Source: Escherichia coli (lineage in GTDB: Bacteria > Pseudomonadota > Gammaproteobacteria > Enterobacterales > Enterobacteriaceae). Taken from it: DNA of 64,000 bases. Below the pieces are notes generated by a model that had not been told where the DNA came from, made no database searches, and saw only the letters and a list, made by a program, of their open reading frames with translations. The translations under genes were made by a program, and so were the position numbers. Shown here in pieces: positions 9,417 through 21,425 of this stretch. How positions within the stretch are numbered: the first letter of the stretch is position 1; each line of letters begins with the position of its first letter. The stretch lies in assembly GCF_003018255.1 (NCBI RefSeq), contig NZ_CP027440.1. One strand, written 5' to 3'.

Positions 9417-9684
9417 AATACTCTCTCCTGAATTTATGATTCACGGAAGTAAGCTCTCTATAACTATAATAGCTAAGAATAAGCCTGGTGAAATTATTCC
9501 GTGAAATCCGCTCGCGCGCAGGGTTATATCACGCAGGTGATAATGACTTCCTGTTATATCGCTGATAATAATTTTATATCTTGAGAGTGTTAATAACAGG
9601 TAAATAGTCTTAATTATCAACCAGGAATCATCTTAGAGCGGATGATTTGCCAAACTGCAAATCATCCGTAGAGAAGGGAAATGG

Positions 9685-10434
9685 TTAAATGTCAACGACG
9701 TGAACGGTGAGTTTACTGTGCTCAAGATGCATCAGATCGCTGGCGCGTATTTTCGAATCGGTAATCACGCGATTGAATCGCTCAACGGGACCGATGGAGT
9801 ATGAATGTACAGCACCAAATTTCGAGCTGTCAGTCAGGACTATTGCTTCGCACTCTTTTTCCAGCACGGCATTGACCACATCGGTACGCATCATATCGCG
9901 ACCGGTGAATCCAGTTTCAGGTTGCCAGCCATCAATACCAATAAATGCTTTGCTGAAATGTACCTGTTGGATGCACTGGCGTGTCAACGGGCCAACCATA
10001 CTTTCGCTTTTTTTCTGGTACACGCCACCGAGCAAAATAACTTCACAAGGCGCGTCTTTCAGCAAATGCGCGATGTAGCTGCTGACCGTGATGATAGTGA
10101 CATTTTTCTTCTGCTCGCCCAGAGTCCGGGCGAGCAGGGCATTGCTGCTGCCATTTTCGATAAAGATGGTTTCGCCCGGTTGAACCAGTGACGCGGCAAA
10201 CTCGGCGAGTTCACGCTTCAGCGTATAGTTGCTCATCATACGAGTTTCGACGTCATCACTATCAAGCGATACTGCAAAGCCATGTGCACGGCGGAGGTAA
10301 CTCAGTTTTTCGAGGGTGTTGAGATCCTGGCGAATGGTAACTTCAGAAACTCCAGTGGCTTTTGCCAGATCGGTTACGCTAACCTGACCCTGGTCAATGA
10401 CCATCTGTAGAATAGTTTGTTGTCGGGAATTCAT
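9685..10434 (-). CDS. yciT: DeoR-family transcriptional regulator YciT
   Basis: 249 aa; N-terminal DeoR HTH (…[31 protein letters not shown]…) and C-terminal sugar-phosphate-binding domain. Confidence 0.9.
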
Positions 10435-10844: not shown

Positions 10845-12830
10845 TTATGCGCGCTTCAGATAGCGTTTATACCAACGTTCGAAGGCGACGGCGGGCATCG
10901 GTTTGGCAAACAAAAATCCTTGCCGCTCATTGATCCCGTTCTTGGTTAAAAAAGCATCTTCCTTTGCACTCTCTACACCTTCGGCGATCACCTGAAGATT
11001 CAATGCCTGGGCCACAGCGACGATCGCCCGGACCAGTGACTGCGAGACAGGTTGTTTGTGAATATCTCGAACAAAAACCTGGTCAAGTTTGATGGCATCG
11101 ATCGGAAAGCGCGCCAGTTGCGAAAGTGAAGAGTAGCCGGTACCAAAATCGTCCAGATGCACTTGCGCACCTAGTTGGCTAAATTGTTGAATAACAGACA
11201 GTGCCAGCTCATCATTCTCAATCAGGCAGCTCTCCGTCAGTTCAACATCAATAGGGCAGTATTCAAAATTGAGTTCCTGGAGAACCTGTTTCAGGGCGGT
11301 GAAAATGGTTTGATCGGCGAGCTGACGTGCAGAAATGTTTACCGCCACTCGCAGGTTAATGCCTTTATCCCGCCACTTCGCCACCTGGCGTACGACATCG
11401 AGAATCACCCAACGGCCTAAAGGCACAATTAGCCCTGACTCTTCGGCGTAGGAAATAAAGTCCAACGGTGGAATTAACCCACGTTCAGGTGACTGCCAAC
11501 GTACTAAAGCTTCCAGACTGCGTACTTCGCCACGCCAGGTGATTTTCGGTTGATAGTGAATAACCAACTGATCGTTTTCCAGTGCTTTACGCAAGTTGGT
11601 ATCCAGCCAGAGATATTCAAATACCCGCTGATTCATTTCTGGAGTAAAAACGCAAAATTGTCCTCGTCCGCCTTCCTTCGCTGTGTACATTGCTGTGTCG
11701 GCGTGACGAATAATAGCCGCGCTGTCCGAACCATGTTCGGGAGAGAGTGAAATACCCACTGAACAGCTGGTATAAACTTCAATTAAACCAATGCGGAAGG
11801 GGAGTCGTAAGCGGGTCAAAATTCGTGATGCCATTGCTTCCAGCGCGCTTTGTGAGGTATTGGATGCCAGTACCAGAAACTCATCGCCACCTGGACGCGC
11901 CAACACCTGATCATGTTCGAGACAGCTTAAAATGGCCAATGACACGTCGCGTAATAGCTGGTCACCAAACAAATGCCCATAAGCGTCGTTGACCTTTTTA
12001 AAATTATCCAAATCAAGATACACAACCCCAACTTTATTGTTATCTGCCTGATTAATGGCGTGATCGATTAACTCCTGCATTGCGTTACGATTCGGCAGTC
12101 CGGTGATACTGTCGGTATTTGCCAGAATACGCAGTCGCTCCTGAGCGCGGCGCTCTTCGGTAATGTCGGTGCCGGAACAGATTAAAAAAATTTCGTTCTT
12201 GCCACTGCCGCTGTGGACAAATTTATTGCGAAACAGAAACAGCCGCTGGCCTTTACGTGTTGGTATCCACAGTTCGACTTCATATGCATTGCCGCTTCGA
12301 AAAAATACACGGTTATTGCGCCTGGATGCCGCTGCTTCACGACGGCTCATAAACAGTTTAAACACGCTTTGGCCAATGACGTCGTGTTCTTTCAACCCAG
12401 TGTAATCTTCACATAACCGATTGAAGCGTTGGATATTCCCCCGGCTGTCGAGAATCACTATTGCGGAATGTGCTTCAGAAACTACCTGCTCAGCAAAGGA
12501 AAGTCCGTGTGATAAATCACGAGCAACTGCTGGTGTGTCATGCCATGCAGACGCGTTGCCAGCCCATTCCCGTTTATTGATTTTTCGTCCTACCAGATGC
12601 ACAGAAAGATCGCTTTCATCGACGGTCAGACTCATCATCAGGCTGGAGGTGATGACCGTCATTTCCCTGATGCGAGCAGCCTGTTCGGCAGATAACTGCA
12701 ACGTACGTTCAGGTTCTGTGGTTTCGGTGGTAGAAAAGCGCAAAACATCGCTGCTTTCCGTTAACCGCCAGTATGGATTGTGCGATCCGAGAAAGTTGTA
12801 CAACGTTGTGGACTCCCTAACGGTTTTCAT
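10845..12830 (-). CDS. pdeR: cyclic-di-GMP phosphodiesterase PdeR (Gmr/YciR): PAS–GGDEF–EAL
   Basis: 661 aa; degenerate GGDEF (…RPGGDEFLVL…) followed by an EAL domain (…EALVRW…); matches remembered PdeR. Confidence 0.93.
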   Translation of the reverse strand: MKTVRESTTLYNFLGSHNPYWRLTESSDVLRFSTTETTEPERTLQLSAEQAARIREMTVITSSLMMSLTVDESDLSVHLVGRKINKREWAGNASAWHDTPAVARDLSHGLSFAEQVVSEAHSAIVILDSRGNIQRFNRLCEDYTGLKEHDVIGQSVFKLFMSRREAAASRRNNRVFFRSGNAYEVELWIPTRKGQRLFLFRNKFVHSGSGKNEIFLICSGTDITEERRAQERLRILANTDSITGLPNRNAMQELIDHAINQADNNKVGVVYLDLDNFKKVNDAYGHLFGDQLLRDVSLAILSCLEHDQVLARPGGDEFLVLASNTSQSALEAMASRILTRLRLPFRIGLIEVYTSCSVGISLSPEHGSDSAAIIRHADTAMYTAKEGGRGQFCVFTPEMNQRVFEYLWLDTNLRKALENDQLVIHYQPKITWRGEVRSLEALVRWQSPERGLIPPLDFISYAEESGLIVPLGRWVILDVVRQVAKWRDKGINLRVAVNISARQLADQTIFTALKQVLQELNFEYCPIDVELTESCLIENDELALSVIQQFSQLGAQVHLDDFGTGYSSLSQLARFPIDAIKLDQVFVRDIHKQPVSQSLVRAIVAVAQALNLQVIAEGVESAKEDAFLTKNGINERQGFLFAKPMPAVAFERWYKRYLKRA

Positions 12831-15066: not shown

Positions 15067-16194
15067 TTAATATGTCTCACCCAACGCGATTTTTAAGCGA
15101 TTTATCCAGCCACACAGCCCGCTCCATACCAGCAGATTAATAATCTGCGTTGATGATTTTTCGTGTTCGAGTAATGGGCTGAACTGGGCGGCGCTAAAGC
15201 GATCGGGTGCTCGGGTCAGCCATTGTATCGCCTGAACGGTAGCGCGCTCAACAGAATGACGGTCAGCCCATTGGTTAATTTCATTTTCGCCCTTGCGCAG
15301 AAGGGCGCTGATTTTTTTATATTCATTTGATGAATTCATACAGGTGGCAAAACAAGCAGGACTGCCATTTATCCGCGCGCATAACAACGCCGCAAGCTGA
15401 TTATCCGGCTGTGTATTGACCCGTGTGCTGTTTAGCAACTTTTCGAGAAGGGAAAGTGAAATAGGGTGGAGAGAGAGTGTTTCGGCCAGTTGGCAAAGTT
15501 CTGCAGTTGAACTTTTTGTGTGCTCTTCAGGGAGTTTTTCCACCTCATAGCTGCTTCGCCAGCGTATTGATTCATCAGCAAACAGTGACGCGTCGGCATA
15601 GTTTTGTATCTCCAGACCGGGTAACCAGCGTACCGGATGCCCGAGATAAGCCTGAAATGTCGCAATTGACCGCGCCTGAAAGCCAATAAAACCAATGATT
15701 TGGTTAATGATTACACAGTCCCAGGCAGTTAGGCCGACGTCATTCAGATGCTGGCGCGATCGGTTGTCGATAATAGAAGGCGAGCTAGCCAGTTGGCGGG
15801 CATATTGCGTGATTTGTGCTAACCGATGATTACTTTCCCTGGAGGAATCAGGCCCGGGGAGCGGCGTAAGTCGCGCCGAATAGTAGTTACATAACCGTTG
15901 GACGCCGCAAACCTGAGCAACCGTCAGGGCCGTCGACAAGCGTTCATAAGCGGTGAAGGTCTGTGAACGGGTCACGGTAAGCTGGTCAGGGAACAACTCT
16001 ACTGCAAGAACGCGCGCAGGGACCAGCCATGAAAGGAAGGGTGCCAGCGTTTCTTCATCAAGGATCACGTCGAGCAGAAAGGGATCGCTGACCTTTGCGG
16101 CTTCCGGGACCAGAGGCAGAACGTCATACTCCGCAGTACTGGATTGCGTTTCATGATACCAGTGGCTTTTGCCGGTGATGTGGCGTTGTTCCAT
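15067..16194 (-). CDS. yciW: uncharacterised protein YciW (carboxymuconolactone-decarboxylase-like)
   Basis: ORF 15067..16272; start placed at the internal Met ([15 protein letters not shown]…), 375 aa. Confidence 0.85.
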
Positions 16195-16337: not shown

Positions 16338-17126
16338 TTATTTCAGTTCGAGTTCGTTCATTGCAGCGATGCTGAAACCGCCGTCAACGTGGACCACTTC
16401 ACCGGAGATACCGGCAGAGAGATCGGAGCACAGGAATGCCGCGGAGTTACCCACATCTTCAATAGTAACGGTACGGCGAATCGGGGTAACGGCTTCGCAA
16501 TGAGCCAGCATTTTGCGGAAGTCTTTGATACCGGAAGCCGCCAGAGTACGGATCGGACCCGCAGAGATGGCGTTAACACGCACACCTTCCGGACCCATCG
16601 CGTTCGCCATATAGCGCACGTTCGCTTCCAGAGACGCTTTTGCCAGACCCATAACGTTGTAGTTCGGGATAGCGCGCTCAGCGCCAAGGTAGGAAAGGGT
16701 CAGCAGGGCAGAACCCGGATTCAGCATGGAGCGGCAAGCTTTTGCCATTGCAACGAAGCTGTAGGAGCTGATGTCGTGGGCAATTTTGAAGCCTTCACGA
16801 GTAACGGCGTTAACATAGTCACCATCCAGCTGATCGCCAGGTGCAAAACCAATAGAGTGTACGAAACCGTCAAATTTCGGCCAAACTTTCCCCAGTTCAG
16901 CGAACATGGTGTCGATGCTGGTATCTTCGGCAACATCGCACTGCAGAACGATGTCAGAACCCAATTGAGCGGCAAATTCTTCTACGCGGCCTTTCAGTTT
17001 GTCGTTCTGGTAGGTGAATGCCAGTTCAGCTCCTTCGCGGTGCATCGCCTGAGCGATACCGTAGGCGATGGACAGTTTGCTGGCAACACCGGTTACCAGA
17101 ATGCGCTTACCGGAAAGAAAACCCAT
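16338..17126 (-). CDS. fabI: enoyl-[acyl-carrier-protein] reductase (NADH)
   Basis: 262 aa; SDR fold with N-terminal Gly-rich NAD-binding motif and conserved FabI sequence. Confidence 0.96.
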
Positions 17127-17603
17127 AGCTTTAATCCTTATTGTTGATGCTTGTTGTGCCTGAAAATCAGGCGATTCGTCGTTTTAGTAAACAGTACGAA
17201 CAGATAAACGGTTATTATAATCAACCTGGCTGTGGGTGGCTATAGTTGCGCTTTCTGTACCGGAGAGAAGCTGCGGTACAGAGCATTTTGCGTTATCTAC
17301 TCTTGACGCCTGCAAGGGGTAGGTTGGGGGAATATCTTATAGAATCTGACTATGAAACTATTCGTATTAGCTCCGATAAGTTTGATGATGAAAACAGAAC
17401 TGGCGACAACAAGTAGCAGCCTTTCTGATGAATTGACCCCAACTTAATATTGTCAACTATCTTCACAGAATCTCCACAATCTCTTCATTATCAGAATATG
17501 CACCATGAATAAGATAAAAATACTTTCCATTACTTTGGAGAAACGTATAATCAGCAAAAATGAGAACGATCATTCTCACCAAGTGATAGGCCAGGAGACA
17601 GAA

Positions 17604-18170
17604 ATGACCAGCAAGCTGGAGATACGCCACAAACAGCGTCAGGATGAAATCATTAACGCCGCCCGTCGGTGTTTTCGTCGCTGCGGATTTCATGCCGCCA
17701 GTATGTCGCAAATTGCCAGCGAAGCTCAGCTTAGCGTGGGTCAGATATATCGTTACTTCGCCAACAAAGACGCCATTATTGAAGAGATGGTTCGCCGTAT
17801 CATCGACTTTCGTATTGCCCAAATGGACATTGACGCGCGTACCGATCACTTCCCGGAAGTCCTTGCCTTGCGTAAATCCTTAAATGAGGACGACGACGCG
17901 CTGATGCTGGAAGTGGCTGCAGAAGCCACACGCAACCCGCGGGTTATGGCAATGCTTGAAGAAGCTGACGCCAGAATGTTCGCTAACGGTTGTGCACATA
18001 TGAAAAGAATGCATCCCCATCTTAGCGACGAGCACATTCGTTGCTGCGTTGAAGTGTTTGCTACCATGATGGAAGGTACGGTTTATCGTCGTTTAACACC
18101 GCAAAAAAGCGATCCACAACATCTGCAGGAAATATATCAGGATATTGTTAGTATGTTGATAAATAAATAA
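17604..18170 (+). CDS. TetR/AcrR-family transcriptional regulator, likely repressor of the adjacent efflux operon
   Basis: ORF 17505..18170; start at ATG 17604 preceded by AGGAGA; N-terminal TetR HTH (…AARRCFRRCGFHAASMSQIASEAQLSVGQIYRYFANKDAI…). Confidence 0.85.
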   Translation: MTSKLEIRHKQRQDEIINAARRCFRRCGFHAASMSQIASEAQLSVGQIYRYFANKDAIIEEMVRRIIDFRIAQMDIDARTDHFPEVLALRKSLNEDDDALMLEVAAEATRNPRVMAMLEEADARMFANGCAHMKRMHPHLSDEHIRCCVEVFATMMEGTVYRRLTPQKSDPQHLQEIYQDIVSMLINK

Positions 18171-18190: not shown

Positions 18191-18216
18191 GGGGGATATT
18201 AATCCCCCTTATTTCA
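18191..18216 (+). terminator. intrinsic terminator after the TetR gene (GGGGGA-tattaa-TCCCCC followed by TTATTTCATT)
   Basis: Stem, loop and T-rich tail read directly, 21 bp after the TetR stop. Confidence 0.7.
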
Positions 18217-18318: not shown

Positions 18319-19440
18319 ATGAAGTATATAGCAACATCTGTAGTGGCAATGCTGCTCTTATCGGGTTGTGATAATACGCAAAGTAACAATTCATCCCCGT
18401 CAGAAACAGAAGTCGGCGTTGTTACGCTCAAATCTCAACCGGTTTCGGTAGTCAGTGAATTAACCGGACGCACCAGTGCTGCGCTCAGTGCTGAAGTACG
18501 TCCGCAGGTTGGGGGAATTATCCAGAAACGCTTATTTAAGGAAGGTGATCTGGTCAAGGCTGGACAGCCGCTCTACCAGATTGATGCGGCCAGTTATCAG
18601 GCTGCATGGAATGAAGCTCGGGCAGCATTACAACAAGCACAGGCACTGGTAAAAGCCGATTGCCAGAAAGCGCAGCGTTATGCCCGACTGGTGAAAGAGA
18701 ACGGTGTTTCACAACAGGATGCTGATGATGCTCAGTCTACCTGTGCACAAGATAAAGCCAGTGTAGAGGCGAAAAAAGCCGCACTGGAAACTGCGCGCAT
18801 TAATCTTGACTGGACCACGGTAACCGCACCGATTTCGGGGCGTATTGGTATTTCGTCGGTAACCCCTGGCGCACTGGTGACCGCGTCGCAGGATACAGCG
18901 TTAACGACTATTCGTGGTCTGGATACAATGTATGTCGACCTCACTCGCTCTAGTGTCGATTTATTACGTCTGCGTAAACAGTCACTGGCGACCAACAGTG
19001 ACACCATGAGCGTCTCACTTATTCTGGAAGATGGCACAACTTACAGCGAAAAAGGGCGTCTGGAACTCACCGAAGTCGCTGTAGATGAGTCTACCGGTTC
19101 GGTGACATTACGGGCGATTTTTCCCAATCCACAACAGCAGTTATTACCGGGAATGTTTGTTCGCGCTCGTGTCGATGAAGGCGTGATGGAAGACGCTATT
19201 CTCGCGCCGCAACAGGGCGTCACGCGCGATGCTAAAGGCAATGCAACTGCGCTGGTGGTGAATAAAGACAATAAAGTAGAGCAGCGAACGCTCGAAACGG
19301 GAGAAACGTATGGTGATAAATGGCTGGTGCTGAACGGCCTGCACAACGGCGACCGACTGATTGTTGAAGGTTCTGCCAAAGTCACTTCAGGGCAGACCGT
19401 CAAGGCTGTTGAAGTTCAGGCTAATGGAGGCAACGCCTGA
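18319..19440 (+). CDS. RND efflux periplasmic adaptor (membrane fusion protein), AcrA/MexA-like lipoprotein
   Basis: ORF 18286..19440; start at 18319 (MKYIATSVVAMLLLSGC…, lipobox); strong AcrA-like similarity (…GRTSA…EVRPQVGGII…, …TLRAIFPNP…LLPGMFVRAR…). Confidence 0.9.
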   Translation: MKYIATSVVAMLLLSGCDNTQSNNSSPSETEVGVVTLKSQPVSVVSELTGRTSAALSAEVRPQVGGIIQKRLFKEGDLVKAGQPLYQIDAASYQAAWNEARAALQQAQALVKADCQKAQRYARLVKENGVSQQDADDAQSTCAQDKASVEAKKAALETARINLDWTTVTAPISGRIGISSVTPGALVTASQDTALTTIRGLDTMYVDLTRSSVDLLRLRKQSLATNSDTMSVSLILEDGTTYSEKGRLELTEVAVDESTGSVTLRAIFPNPQQQLLPGMFVRARVDEGVMEDAILAPQQGVTRDAKGNATALVVNKDNKVEQRTLETGETYGDKWLVLNGLHNGDRLIVEGSAKVTSGQTVKAVEVQANGGNA

Positions 19441-21425
19441 TGTTTTCGCGCTTTTTTGTTCGCCGCCCGGTCTTTGCCTGGGTTATCGCCATTTTGATTA
19501 TGTTGGCGGGGATTCTGGCTATTCGCACATTGCCCGTCGCGCAATATCCTGACGTTGCACCGCCGACCATTAAAATTTCAGCCACTTATACTGGTGCTTC
19601 TGCCGAAACGCTGGAGAACAGCGTGACTCAGGTTATCGAGCAACAACTCACTGGGCTTGATAATTTACTCTATTTCAGCTCAACCAGTAGCTCTGATGGT
19701 TCGGTCAGTATTAATGTGACCTTTGAACAAGGTACCGATCCAGATACTGCACAGGTTCAGGTGCAGAATAAAATTCAGCAGGCGGAGTCGCGCCTACCCA
19801 GCGAAGTGCAGCAAACGGGTGTTACGGTGGAGAAATCACAAAGCAACTTTTTGCTGATTGCTGCCGTGTATGACACCACTGACAAAGCCTCCAGTTCGGA
19901 TATCGCCGACTGGCTGGTCAGTAACGTTCAGGACCCCCTGGCGCGTGTTGAAGGTGTGGGGAGTCTGCAAGTCTTTGGCGCGGAATACGCTATGCGCATC
20001 TGGCTCGACCCGGCCAAACTGGCGTCTTACTCGCTGATGCCTTCAGACGTGCAAAGTGCTATTGAAGCGCAAAACGTGCAGGTTACTGCCGGGAAAATAG
20101 GGGCATTGCCTTCACCGGATACTCAGCAACTGACCGCAACGGTACGTGCGCAGTCTCGCTTGCAGACGGTGGATCAGTTCAAAAATATTATCGTGAAAAG
20201 CCAGTCAGACGGCGCAGTTGTTCGTATAAAAGATGTGGCTCGCGTTGAGATGGGCAGTGAAGATTATACCGCTATTGGCAAACTTAACGGTCACCCGTCT
20301 GCCGGGGTTGCTGTAATGCTTTCGCCCGGTGCGAATGCGCTGAATACGGCGACGCTGGTCAAGGATAAGATTGCCGAATTCCAGCGGAACATGCCGCAGG
20401 GATACGACATCGCATACCCGAAAGACAGCACTGAATTTATTAAAATCTCCGTAGAGGACGTAATTCAGACGCTGTTTGAAGCCATCGTATTGGTGGTTTG
20501 CGTGATGTATTTATTCCTGCAAAACCTGCGTGCCACACTGATTCCGGCGTTAGCTGTCCCCGTCGTTTTGCTGGGCACATTCGGCGTTCTTGCGTTGTTT
20601 GGCTATTCGATTAATACCCTGACGTTGTTTGCAATGGTGCTGGCGATCGGCTTGTTGGTGGACGATGCCATTGTGGTGGTGGAGAACGTCGAACGCATTA
20701 TGCGTGACGAAGGGTTGCCCGCGCGTGAAGCCACGGAAAAATCAATGGGCGAGATTTCTGGCGCACTGGTTGCCATTGCGCTGGTGTTGTCAGCCGTATT
20801 CCTGCCGATGGCCTTCTTTGGGGGATCTACGGGGGTAATTTATCGTCAGTTCTCCATCACCATCATCTCCGCAATGCTGCTTTCCGTGGTGGTGGCATTG
20901 ACCTTGACTCCCGCCCTGTGCGGTTCCGTCCTCCAGCATGTTCCACCACATAAAAAAGGCTTTTTCGGCGCATTTAACCGCTTTTACCGCCGTACTGAAG
21001 ATAAATATCAGCGAGGCGTAATTTATGTCCTGCGCCGTGCAGCCCGAACGATGGGGCTTTATGTCGTGCTGGGTGGTGGAATGGCACTGATGATGTGGAA
21101 GCTGCCGGGCAGTTTCTTACCCACTGAAGACCAGGGCGAAATCATGGTGCAGTACACGCTGCCGGCCGGGGCGACCGCTGCCCGTACAGCAGAAGTGAAT
21201 CGCCAGATTGTTGACTGGTTCCTGATTAACGAGAAAGCAAATACCGATGTCATCTTTACCGTTGATGGTTTCAGTTTTAGCGGCAGCGGACAGAACACCG
21301 GGATGGCGTTTGTTTCGTTGAAAAACTGGTCTCAACGTAAAGGGGCAGAAAACACCGCCCAGGCTATCGCCCTACGGGCTACCAAAGAGCTGGGCACAAT
21401 TCGTGTGCCACGGTATTTGCGATGA
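19440..21425 (+). CDS. RND multidrug efflux permease, AcrB-like, N-terminal ~660-aa fragment ending at a frameshift-induced stop
   Basis: Start overlaps the adaptor stop (TGATG); AcrB-like over its length (MFSRFFVRRPVFAWVIAILIMLAG…); terminates seven codons after the frame change, where an intact AcrB continues. Confidence 0.8.
   Translation: MFSRFFVRRPVFAWVIAILIMLAGILAIRTLPVAQYPDVAPPTIKISATYTGASAETLENSVTQVIEQQLTGLDNLLYFSSTSSSDGSVSINVTFEQGTDPDTAQVQVQNKIQQAESRLPSEVQQTGVTVEKSQSNFLLIAAVYDTTDKASSSDIADWLVSNVQDPLARVEGVGSLQVFGAEYAMRIWLDPAKLASYSLMPSDVQSAIEAQNVQVTAGKIGALPSPDTQQLTATVRAQSRLQTVDQFKNIIVKSQSDGAVVRIKDVARVEMGSEDYTAIGKLNGHPSAGVAVMLSPGANALNTATLVKDKIAEFQRNMPQGYDIAYPKDSTEFIKISVEDVIQTLFEAIVLVVCVMYLFLQNLRATLIPALAVPVVLLGTFGVLALFGYSINTLTLFAMVLAIGLLVDDAIVVVENVERIMRDEGLPAREATEKSMGEISGALVAIALVLSAVFLPMAFFGGSTGVIYRQFSITIISAMLLSVVVALTLTPALCGSVLQHVPPHKKGFFGAFNRFYRRTEDKYQRGVIYVLRRAARTMGLYVVLGGGMALMMWKLPGSFLPTEDQGEIMVQYTLPAGATAARTAEVNRQIVDWFLINEKANTDVIFTVDGFSFSGSGQNTGMAFVSLKNWSQRKGAENTAQAIALRATKELGTIRVPRYLR

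Follow-up and report, generated by a model that had tools for sequence, protein, structure and literature searches.

The 477-bp spacer between fabI and eefR in a 64,000-nt stretch of Escherichia coli DNA (contig NZ_CP027440.1, hereafter the window) is an ordinary regulatory region of two divergent genes, the second of which is the first gene of the published efflux operon eefRABCD. We conclude, with a probability of about 75%, that this region contains a haplotype boundary that removes a FadR box from the fabI promoter, that it carries a predicted EefR operator, and that the inverted repeat next to the boundary shows no evidence of a function. The locus itself is already known from published work. 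What is new is the base-level position of the boundary, the observation that eef-type fabI promoters have lost the FadR box, and the prediction of an EefR operator.

The eefRABCD operon was described in phylogroups B2, D, E, F, and G, where it lies between fabI and sapF, and is replaced by ycjD in phylogroups A, B1, and C and in the sequence types ST69 and ST182 (Pugh et al. 2026, Microb Genom, PMC12817139). The efflux block of the window is this operon, with a gene set and a fabI-sapF site identical to the published ones. The TetR gene is followed by genes encoding an adaptor, an RND pump (in two open reading frames, ORFs), an outer-membrane factor, and an MFS pump, and then by sapF on the opposite strand. 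The five co-oriented genes between fabI and sapF are supported by the ORFs, by tblastn, and by the RefSeq annotation of a 99.8%-identical O157:H7 genome. The first gene product, EefR, has a TetR_N helix-turn-helix (Pfam PF00440, E = 1.2e-15, 57.5 bits for a cut-off of 24).

We used the spacer as a query against 5,426 complete E. coli genomes. The whole spacer was found in 2,034 of them, and the other matching genomes cover only positions 1-123 of the query, i.e., positions 17127-17249 of the window. The reciprocal search with the K-12 interval identified 3,375 genomes with the ycjD allele and, among the matches listed, the eef genomes stop matching after the same 123 bp. The numbers of eef-type (2,034) and ycjD-type (about 3,375) genomes agree with the phylogroup split reported in PMC12817139. 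The resulting boundary lies 7 bp upstream of the predicted fabI -35 element, around -42 when counted from the predicted start of fabI transcription. Its distance to the inverted repeat is 5 bp. A previous annotation made from the letters of the window alone (the sequence-only reading) had expected the breakpoint to lie within the spacer, unless the spacer proved identical over its whole length in genomes lacking the block. Such whole-spacer identity is absent from the block-less genomes, which share only 17127-17249, and the boundary is therefore inside the spacer. The features of the region are the following:

17127-17213, minus strand: predicted 5' leader of fabI, about 81 nt, with a predicted transcription start near 17207
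17214-17242, minus strand: predicted sigma-70 core promoter of fabI (promoter scan, 10/12 matches)
17249/17250: left boundary between the eef and ycjD haplotypes (genome searches, pairwise and multi-lineage alignments)
17250-17292: zone of strong divergence, still alignable to the region of K-12 with the FadR box, a box that is absent here (blastn, alignments)
17254-17282: extended inverted repeat TCTGTACCGGAG / CTGCGGTACAGA, with 12-nt arms at 17254-17265 and 17271-17282
17293-17444: variable filler with no conserved element (indel, insertion, replacement, and density of single-nucleotide polymorphisms, SNPs, among lineages)
17445-17603, plus strand: conserved eefR regulatory region (promoter scan, 10/12 matches; conserved in all Escherichia eef loci)
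17463-17849, minus strand: antisense ORF of 128 aa with a GTG start, spurious
17561-17578: 18-bp palindrome TGAGAACGATCATTCTCA, predicted EefR operator, covering the predicted eefR transcription start
17604-18170, plus strand: eefR, TetR/AcrR-family regulator, first gene of eefRABCD (Pfam, RefSeq)
25100-25136, minus strand: sapF terminator hairpin, common to both haplotypes, right edge of the variable cassette (alignment)

The spacer extends from 17127 to 17603, between fabI (minus strand, 16338-17126, start at 17126) and the ATG of eefR at 17604, which is preceded by the ribosome-binding site (RBS) AGGAGA at 17593-17598. The sequence-only reading, which did not recognise the block as the published eefRABCD operon, was correct on these coordinates and on the length of the spacer. 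It was also borne out in its proposal that the spacer carries both promoters, since the promoter scan found one good candidate per gene, each conserved across species. The spacer is 99.8% identical to that of the O157:H7 strain PV15-279, and the window is O157:H7-like. We propose a division in three pieces, where the fabI leader and core promoter would occupy 17127-17249, a haplotype-specific stretch would start at 17250, and the eefR promoter would be contained in 17445-17603.

The predicted fabI promoter has a -35 element TAGCCA (17242-17237), a 17-nt spacer, and a -10 element TATAAT (17219-17214). This core is present in every Escherichia lineage examined, of both eef and ycjD types, with TAGCTA as the -35 element in K-12. 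The leader contains a hairpin with a perfect 6-bp stem, GCCTGA-AAA-TCAGGC, at 17158-17172. Leader and core promoter together (17127-17249) are about 98% identical across Escherichia in both haplotypes. The coding sequence of fabI is 93-96% identical across the genus, and only 93% identical in E. albertii despite the ~98% identity of leader and promoter. The fabI leader is quite different in Salmonella, Citrobacter, and Klebsiella.

The promoter of fabI is reported to be activated by FadR through a site in the promoter (PMC8115981; PMC6339880), and the FadR-activated promoters of K-12 (fabA, fabB, fabHDG, and fabI; My et al. 2013, 2015, cited in PMC6339880 and PMC8115981) provide the natural comparison. 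We used the FadR consensus CTGGTCnGACCwG, in its full form aaCTGGTCnGACC(T/A)Gtt, from PMC9329746. The K-12 allele has a FadR box, CCGGTCgGACCTG, with one mismatch to the consensus core, which makes up the first 13 bases past the boundary. Read in the sense of fabI, the sequence CTCCGGTCGGACCTGGC lies directly upstream of the -35 element, and the near-consensus 17-bp palindrome spans roughly -57 to -41 from the predicted start, at -138 to -122 from the ATG. The box is found with one mismatch, at -136 to -124 from the ATG, in the alleles of K-12, A287, and L064 (GCA_020783085). The window differs: it keeps the core promoter, but 6 of the 12 core positions are mismatched at the homologous place, and there is no substitute box in the spacer. 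Hence, the box upstream of or overlapping the -35 element that characterizes FadR-activated fab promoters is missing in the window.

This absence extends to the other eef-type loci. No box with up to three mismatches was found in six full eef-type spacers (window, ST131, E. albertii, E. whittamii, MOD1-EC7003, and SCPM-O-B-8794), and none with up to two mismatches in the 260 bp upstream of fabI in these six, in E. marmotae, and in Escherichia sp. E2748. With up to one mismatch, none was found in the whole window. We also found no box with up to two mismatches upstream of fabI in Salmonella, Citrobacter, Klebsiella, and a variant with a third upstream sequence (N96). The eef types examined lack the box because the boundary between the eef and ycjD alleles falls exactly at its edge. 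The account of the operon in PMC12817139 includes no analysis of the junction at base level, of the promoters, of operators, or of FadR.

In eef-type strains, fabI would be expected not to be activated by FadR through the K-12 site, and FadR activation of fabI is probably haplotype-specific. A broader proposition, to which we give slightly less than an even chance, is that the regulation of fabI itself differs between the two major halves of E. coli: K-12-type strains (phylogroups A, B1, and C) would activate it through the FadR box, and the eef strains (B2, D, E, F, and G), a group that includes O157:H7, ST131, E. albertii, and E. marmotae, would do without it. If true, what has been learned in K-12 about the response of fabI to fatty acids would not apply to the majority of pathogenic lineages. 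This matters because fabI encodes the essential enoyl-ACP reductase, the target of triclosan. The removal of the FadR box by the boundary yields a prediction that is cheap to test, namely that the control of fabI by fatty acids is allele-specific.

On the other side of the spacer, the predicted eefR promoter consists of a -35 element TTTCCA (17524-17529) and a -10 element TATAAT (17546-17551), with a predicted transcription start near 17558-17560. The eefR orthologues of Enterobacter, Lelliottia, and Leclercia are preceded by the same arrangement, and Kluyvera also has a -10 of the TATAAT type. The palindrome TGAGAACGATCATTCTCA begins 9 nt past this -10 element and has no other match in the 64 kb. 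We scanned 44 loci with eefR orthologues and found TGAGAAYGATCRTTCTCA with at most two mismatches upstream of the gene in 35 of them, right after or overlapping the TATAAT -10 element, in genera that include Enterobacter, Kluyvera, Lelliottia, Leclercia, Kosakonia, and Phytobacter, as well as in Escherichia species. A TetR_N domain and a conserved palindrome at the gene's own promoter and transcription start are what is expected of a self-repressing TetR regulator. This strong phylogenetic footprint makes it likely that the palindrome is the EefR operator, where EefR would repress its own promoter over the transcription start. We considered the C at 17567 as a sign of operator decay in O157, and rejected this idea since, among the other genera, TGAGAACGATCATTCTCA is the version met most often.

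The TetR-family repressors of RND pumps (AcrR for acrAB, EnvR for acrEF) likewise have a TetR_N gene beside the pump and a palindrome at their own promoter. In contrast to these, eefR is the first gene of its operon, is on the same strand as the pump genes instead of being divergent, is followed by a terminator-like hairpin, and has its own predicted operator sequence, TGAGAAYGATCRTTCTCA. The hairpin, GGGGGATATTAATCCCCC followed by TTATTTCATT, is at 18191-18208, directly after eefR. With a single EefR palindrome in the window and a hairpin at this position, eefABCD would be transcribed by read-through or from a promoter of its own. The predicted operator offers a handle for finding the inducer and the function of the EefABC pump.

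What lies just past the boundary bears on its nature. The two alleles look homologous there, but deeply diverged. With a word size of 7, the blastn alignment with K-12 extends to window position 17276, and the eef allele retains the flanking CTCCGGT and CAACTATAG, which enclose ACAGAAAGCG in the eef allele and CGGACCTGG in K-12. The K-12-type site is not empty: it contains about 600 bp of unrelated DNA with the FadR box, a boxC-like repeat, and ycjD (DUF559). The boxC-like palindromic repeat is in the fabI-ycjD spacer (L001, 3155-3367) and recurs elsewhere in the genome, e.g., between tkt and ypfG. The K-12 allele also has a partial duplicate of the 3' end of ycjD, and the K-12 interval has a median of four matching places per genome. 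We attempted to extend the homology past the inverted repeat and rejected it for the window and K-12, where the score was reached in 626 of 1000 shuffles. In E. albertii and K-12, a 13-mer past the repeat (ATTGTGGAAATAT versus ATTGTGCAAATAT) gave p ~0.012-0.016, which is suggestive only.

These observations can be confronted with the idea that transposition or site-specific integration brought the block into a fabI-sapF site that was empty, leaving a scar of which the inverted repeat would be an element end or a remnant of an attachment site. It is true that K-12-type genomes lack the block, that Pugh et al. suggested a lateral acquisition of the operon (PMC12817139), and that orthologous blocks are found in Enterobacter, Kluyvera, Lelliottia, and others, at unrelated loci, which implies an acquisition at this site at some time. 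Yet, we found no direct or inverted repeat of at least 7 bp common to the two junction zones, and no target-site duplication, terminal repeats, or recombinase gene of the kind that marks mobile-element or island junctions. The fabI-sapF interval holds eefRABCD alone, without integrase, transposase, or any other mobility gene, and the composition of the block equals that of the window (48.8% versus 48.6% AT). The supposedly empty allele carries its own unrelated DNA, and operon fragments like those described in eef-negative strains in PMC12817139 were not detected here, as a blastn search of the K-12 allele with 7-nt words for remnants of the eef genes gave only noise-level hits (all E >= 0.88). 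Furthermore, at least five non-coli Escherichia lineages have the block at this very site, the eef allele being found there in E. albertii, E. whittamii, E. marmotae, Escherichia sp. E2748, MOD1-EC7003, and SCPM-O-B-8794. Finally, three distinct sequences, those of the eef, ycjD, and N96 types, are found upstream of the conserved promoter, and the points where they meet it lie within about 8 bp of one another. This is in keeping with selection on the core promoter setting the limit, and not with a site-specific mechanism. An insertion scar is thus highly improbable. The acquisition with a recombination scar that the sequence-only reading had envisaged stands only in part: there is a boundary within the spacer, but a simple acquisition does not account for a block found at the same site across Escherichia lineages, the K-12 site is occupied, and the ends of the block do not bear the usual marks of integration.

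The simplest reading is that this cargo hot spot holds one or the other of two old alleles, which are exchanged through homologous recombination in their conserved flanks. The boundary would be where an old cassette with the two alleles eefRABCD and ycjD has its edge, the cassette being swapped through recombination in the conserved fabI promoter on the left and in the sapF terminator on the right. Both alleles are found in several Escherichia species: the DUF559 allele with its FadR box is also present in L064, labelled E. coli, whose flanks are diverged to the same extent as those of E. marmotae (91% identity in rnb). Outgroups did not help to polarise the alleles. Neither of the two is present in Salmonella, Citrobacter, or Klebsiella, where the alignment upstream of fabI is limited to the surroundings of the -10 element and the RBS, which leaves the change unpolarised. 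The exact boundary points to alternative old alleles exchanged by homologous recombination instead of a simple insertion or deletion, and this two-allele view refines the published account of an operon lost two or three times (PMC12817139).

The inverted repeat had been singled out by the sequence-only reading as a landmark, an 8-bp repeat CTGTACCG-N11-CGGTACAG with arms at 17255-17262 and 17274-17281. It is present exactly as claimed, and can be extended to nine perfect pairs, one mismatch, and two further pairs around a 5-nt loop. We assessed it with 1000 dinucleotide shuffles of the spacer, counting perfect stems with loops of 3-20 nt. Stems of at least 8 bp arose in 12.3% of the shuffles and stems of at least 9 bp in 3.5%, so the repeat is only marginally beyond chance. 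It could nevertheless be the site of a dimeric regulator coordinating fabI and eef, or a hairpin acting as an insulator or a transcription terminator between the divergent promoters. Its perfect 9-bp stem, its stable fold on both strands of the window (z = -2.8 and -2.4), its location at -47 to -75 from the predicted fabI start, a plausible position for an activator, the TTTT run that follows it on the plus strand, and the 7-bp core kept in MOD1-EC7003, E. whittamii, and E. marmotae would all suit such a role.

The comparative data speak against it. A change in the middle of the stem, 17260 C>G, occurs with no compensating change in each of the five further E. coli lineages with eef that were sampled. 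A search with the 85-bp junction gave 2,183 matching genomes, of which 702 were at least 99% identical and about 1,480 were in the 95-99% band, the latter band being consistent with this single change. E. albertii and E2748 have a broken stem and SCPM-O-B-8794 has none, and the folding z-scores are -0.8 in ST131 and +1.35 in E. albertii. Among seven lineages, none of the 11 pairs changed on both sides (five pairs depart by unpaired cells only), and covariation was not above that of the shuffles. A scan of 17000-17750 gave no terminator-like site, and an Rfam search of 16900-17900 gave no match at E <= 1. The repeat itself fails as an intrinsic terminator: on the plus strand the stem is followed by GCATTTTGCG, with only four T that come after a 3-nt gap, and on the minus strand by AAGCGC, where a G+C-rich hairpin with a U-tract directly behind it would be expected. 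It resembles neither the EefR palindrome nor the FadR consensus. With no evidence of function, near-chance occurrence, and a stem disrupted in every other sampled eef lineage of E. coli, the repeat does not hold as a meaningful landmark. A functional role for it is very unlikely, and we regard it as being of no consequence.

One may also ask if the AT-rich spacer is mainly a nucleation site for H-NS that silences eefRABCD, a role that could be layered on a divergent regulatory region with a haplotype boundary without contradicting it. The AT content is 60.4% in the spacer and reaches 64% in the 264 bp proximal to eefR (17340-17603), for 48.6% in the whole window, and the eefR -35 element is preceded by a conserved A-tract. 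The excess is nevertheless modest, and the spacer is AT-rich only to a moderate degree. An excess of this size is not unusual for an intergenic region of E. coli. The eefABC genes of Klebsiella aerogenes are reported to be silenced by H-NS (Masi et al., cited in PMC12817139). Their pump is called orthologous in PMC12817139 and they likewise have an AT-rich upstream region, but they lack eefR and are at a different locus from the E. coli operon. In the view of Pugh et al., the proximity of the essential fabI promoter makes silencing unlikely (PMC12817139). Overall, silencing by H-NS as the main role of the spacer seems rather unlikely.

Several points weigh against our reading of the spacer as a divergent regulatory region whose boundary removes a FadR box and whose repeat has no function. 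Both promoters are predictions, as are the transcription starts placed from them. The homology of the haplotypes past 17250 is statistically weak (p ~0.05 in unanchored local alignment). By its coordinates, the FadR site listed in PMC8115981 begins about 115 bp before the ATG, and 7-9 bp separate this position from the edge of the box that we identified. The two overlap or abut, and may not be identical, although either placement straddles or touches the boundary. FadR could also have an effect on the eef-type fabI that is indirect, or that goes through a site of low affinity or non-canonical sequence. As to the repeat, its fold is stable in the lineage of the window and its 7-bp core (TCTGTAC/GTACAGA) persists in several lineages, which makes a lineage-specific role possible.

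Between the boundary zone and the eefR regulatory region, the variable filler holds most of the SNPs that separate E. coli lineages. At a 48-bp indel near 17397/17398, the window lacks 48 bp that are present in E. albertii, E. whittamii, and MOD1-EC7003. The latter also has a ~125-bp ERIC/IRU-like repeat (L005, ~9580-9705) inserted at the equivalent of window position ~17338, and in SCPM-O-B-8794 the central filler is wholly replaced. We examined an ORF of 56 aa on the plus strand (17246-17416) and an ATG at 17352, and rejected them since they have no Pfam match and are not conserved: the ATG is missing in several lineages, ST131 among them, and its reading frame contains the 48-bp indel. The antisense ORF that overlaps the eefR start exists and is spurious, as the sequence-only reading had guessed, because it has no match in a Pfam search and the corresponding stretch is interrupted by stop codons in relatives, namely in three other Escherichia lineages (L003, L004, and L006) and in three of the four loci checked from other genera (L008, L011, and L032).

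Further into the operon, the RND pump gene eefB (19440-22546) is a pseudogene in the window, with a 1-bp deletion after 21405 relative to the gene of E. marmotae. The intact E. marmotae gene has 3108 nt, and that of the window is split into two ORFs (19440-21425 and 21422-22546). RefSeq labels eefB as 'frameshifted' in O157:H7 PV15-279, and PMC12817139 makes no mention of this frameshift of the O157:H7-like window. At the right edge of the cassette, the stem of the sapF terminator is kept in all Escherichia lineages examined, with a compensatory T>C / A>G pair in the window, and high identity with K-12 resumes at 25145, the stop codon of sapF.

The fabI-sapF interval is also a cargo hot spot in other genera (L059, L060, L061, and L068). 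It contains an EAL-like gene and a gene of 457 aa in Salmonella, an EAL-like gene in C. freundii, a gene with an SdiA-regulated domain in C. koseri, and a permease and a HutD-like gene in K. aerogenes. Beyond fabI, yciW (15067-16194) is unusually diverged among Escherichia lineages, with 78-81% nucleotide identity to the window, compared with 93-96% for fabI and 90-91% for rnb, its neighbours. The genomes L064 (GCA_020783085) and L003 (SCPM-O-B-8794), although labelled E. coli, are as diverged as named non-coli species, with 90-91% identity to the window in rnb and 86-88% in pdeR. The first has the DUF559/FadR-box allele and the second an eef allele with a different central spacer. Finally, pdeR is intact in the window (10845-12830, 661 aa), and is broken in PV15-279 by an IS1203-family element (L002, 2406-5704).

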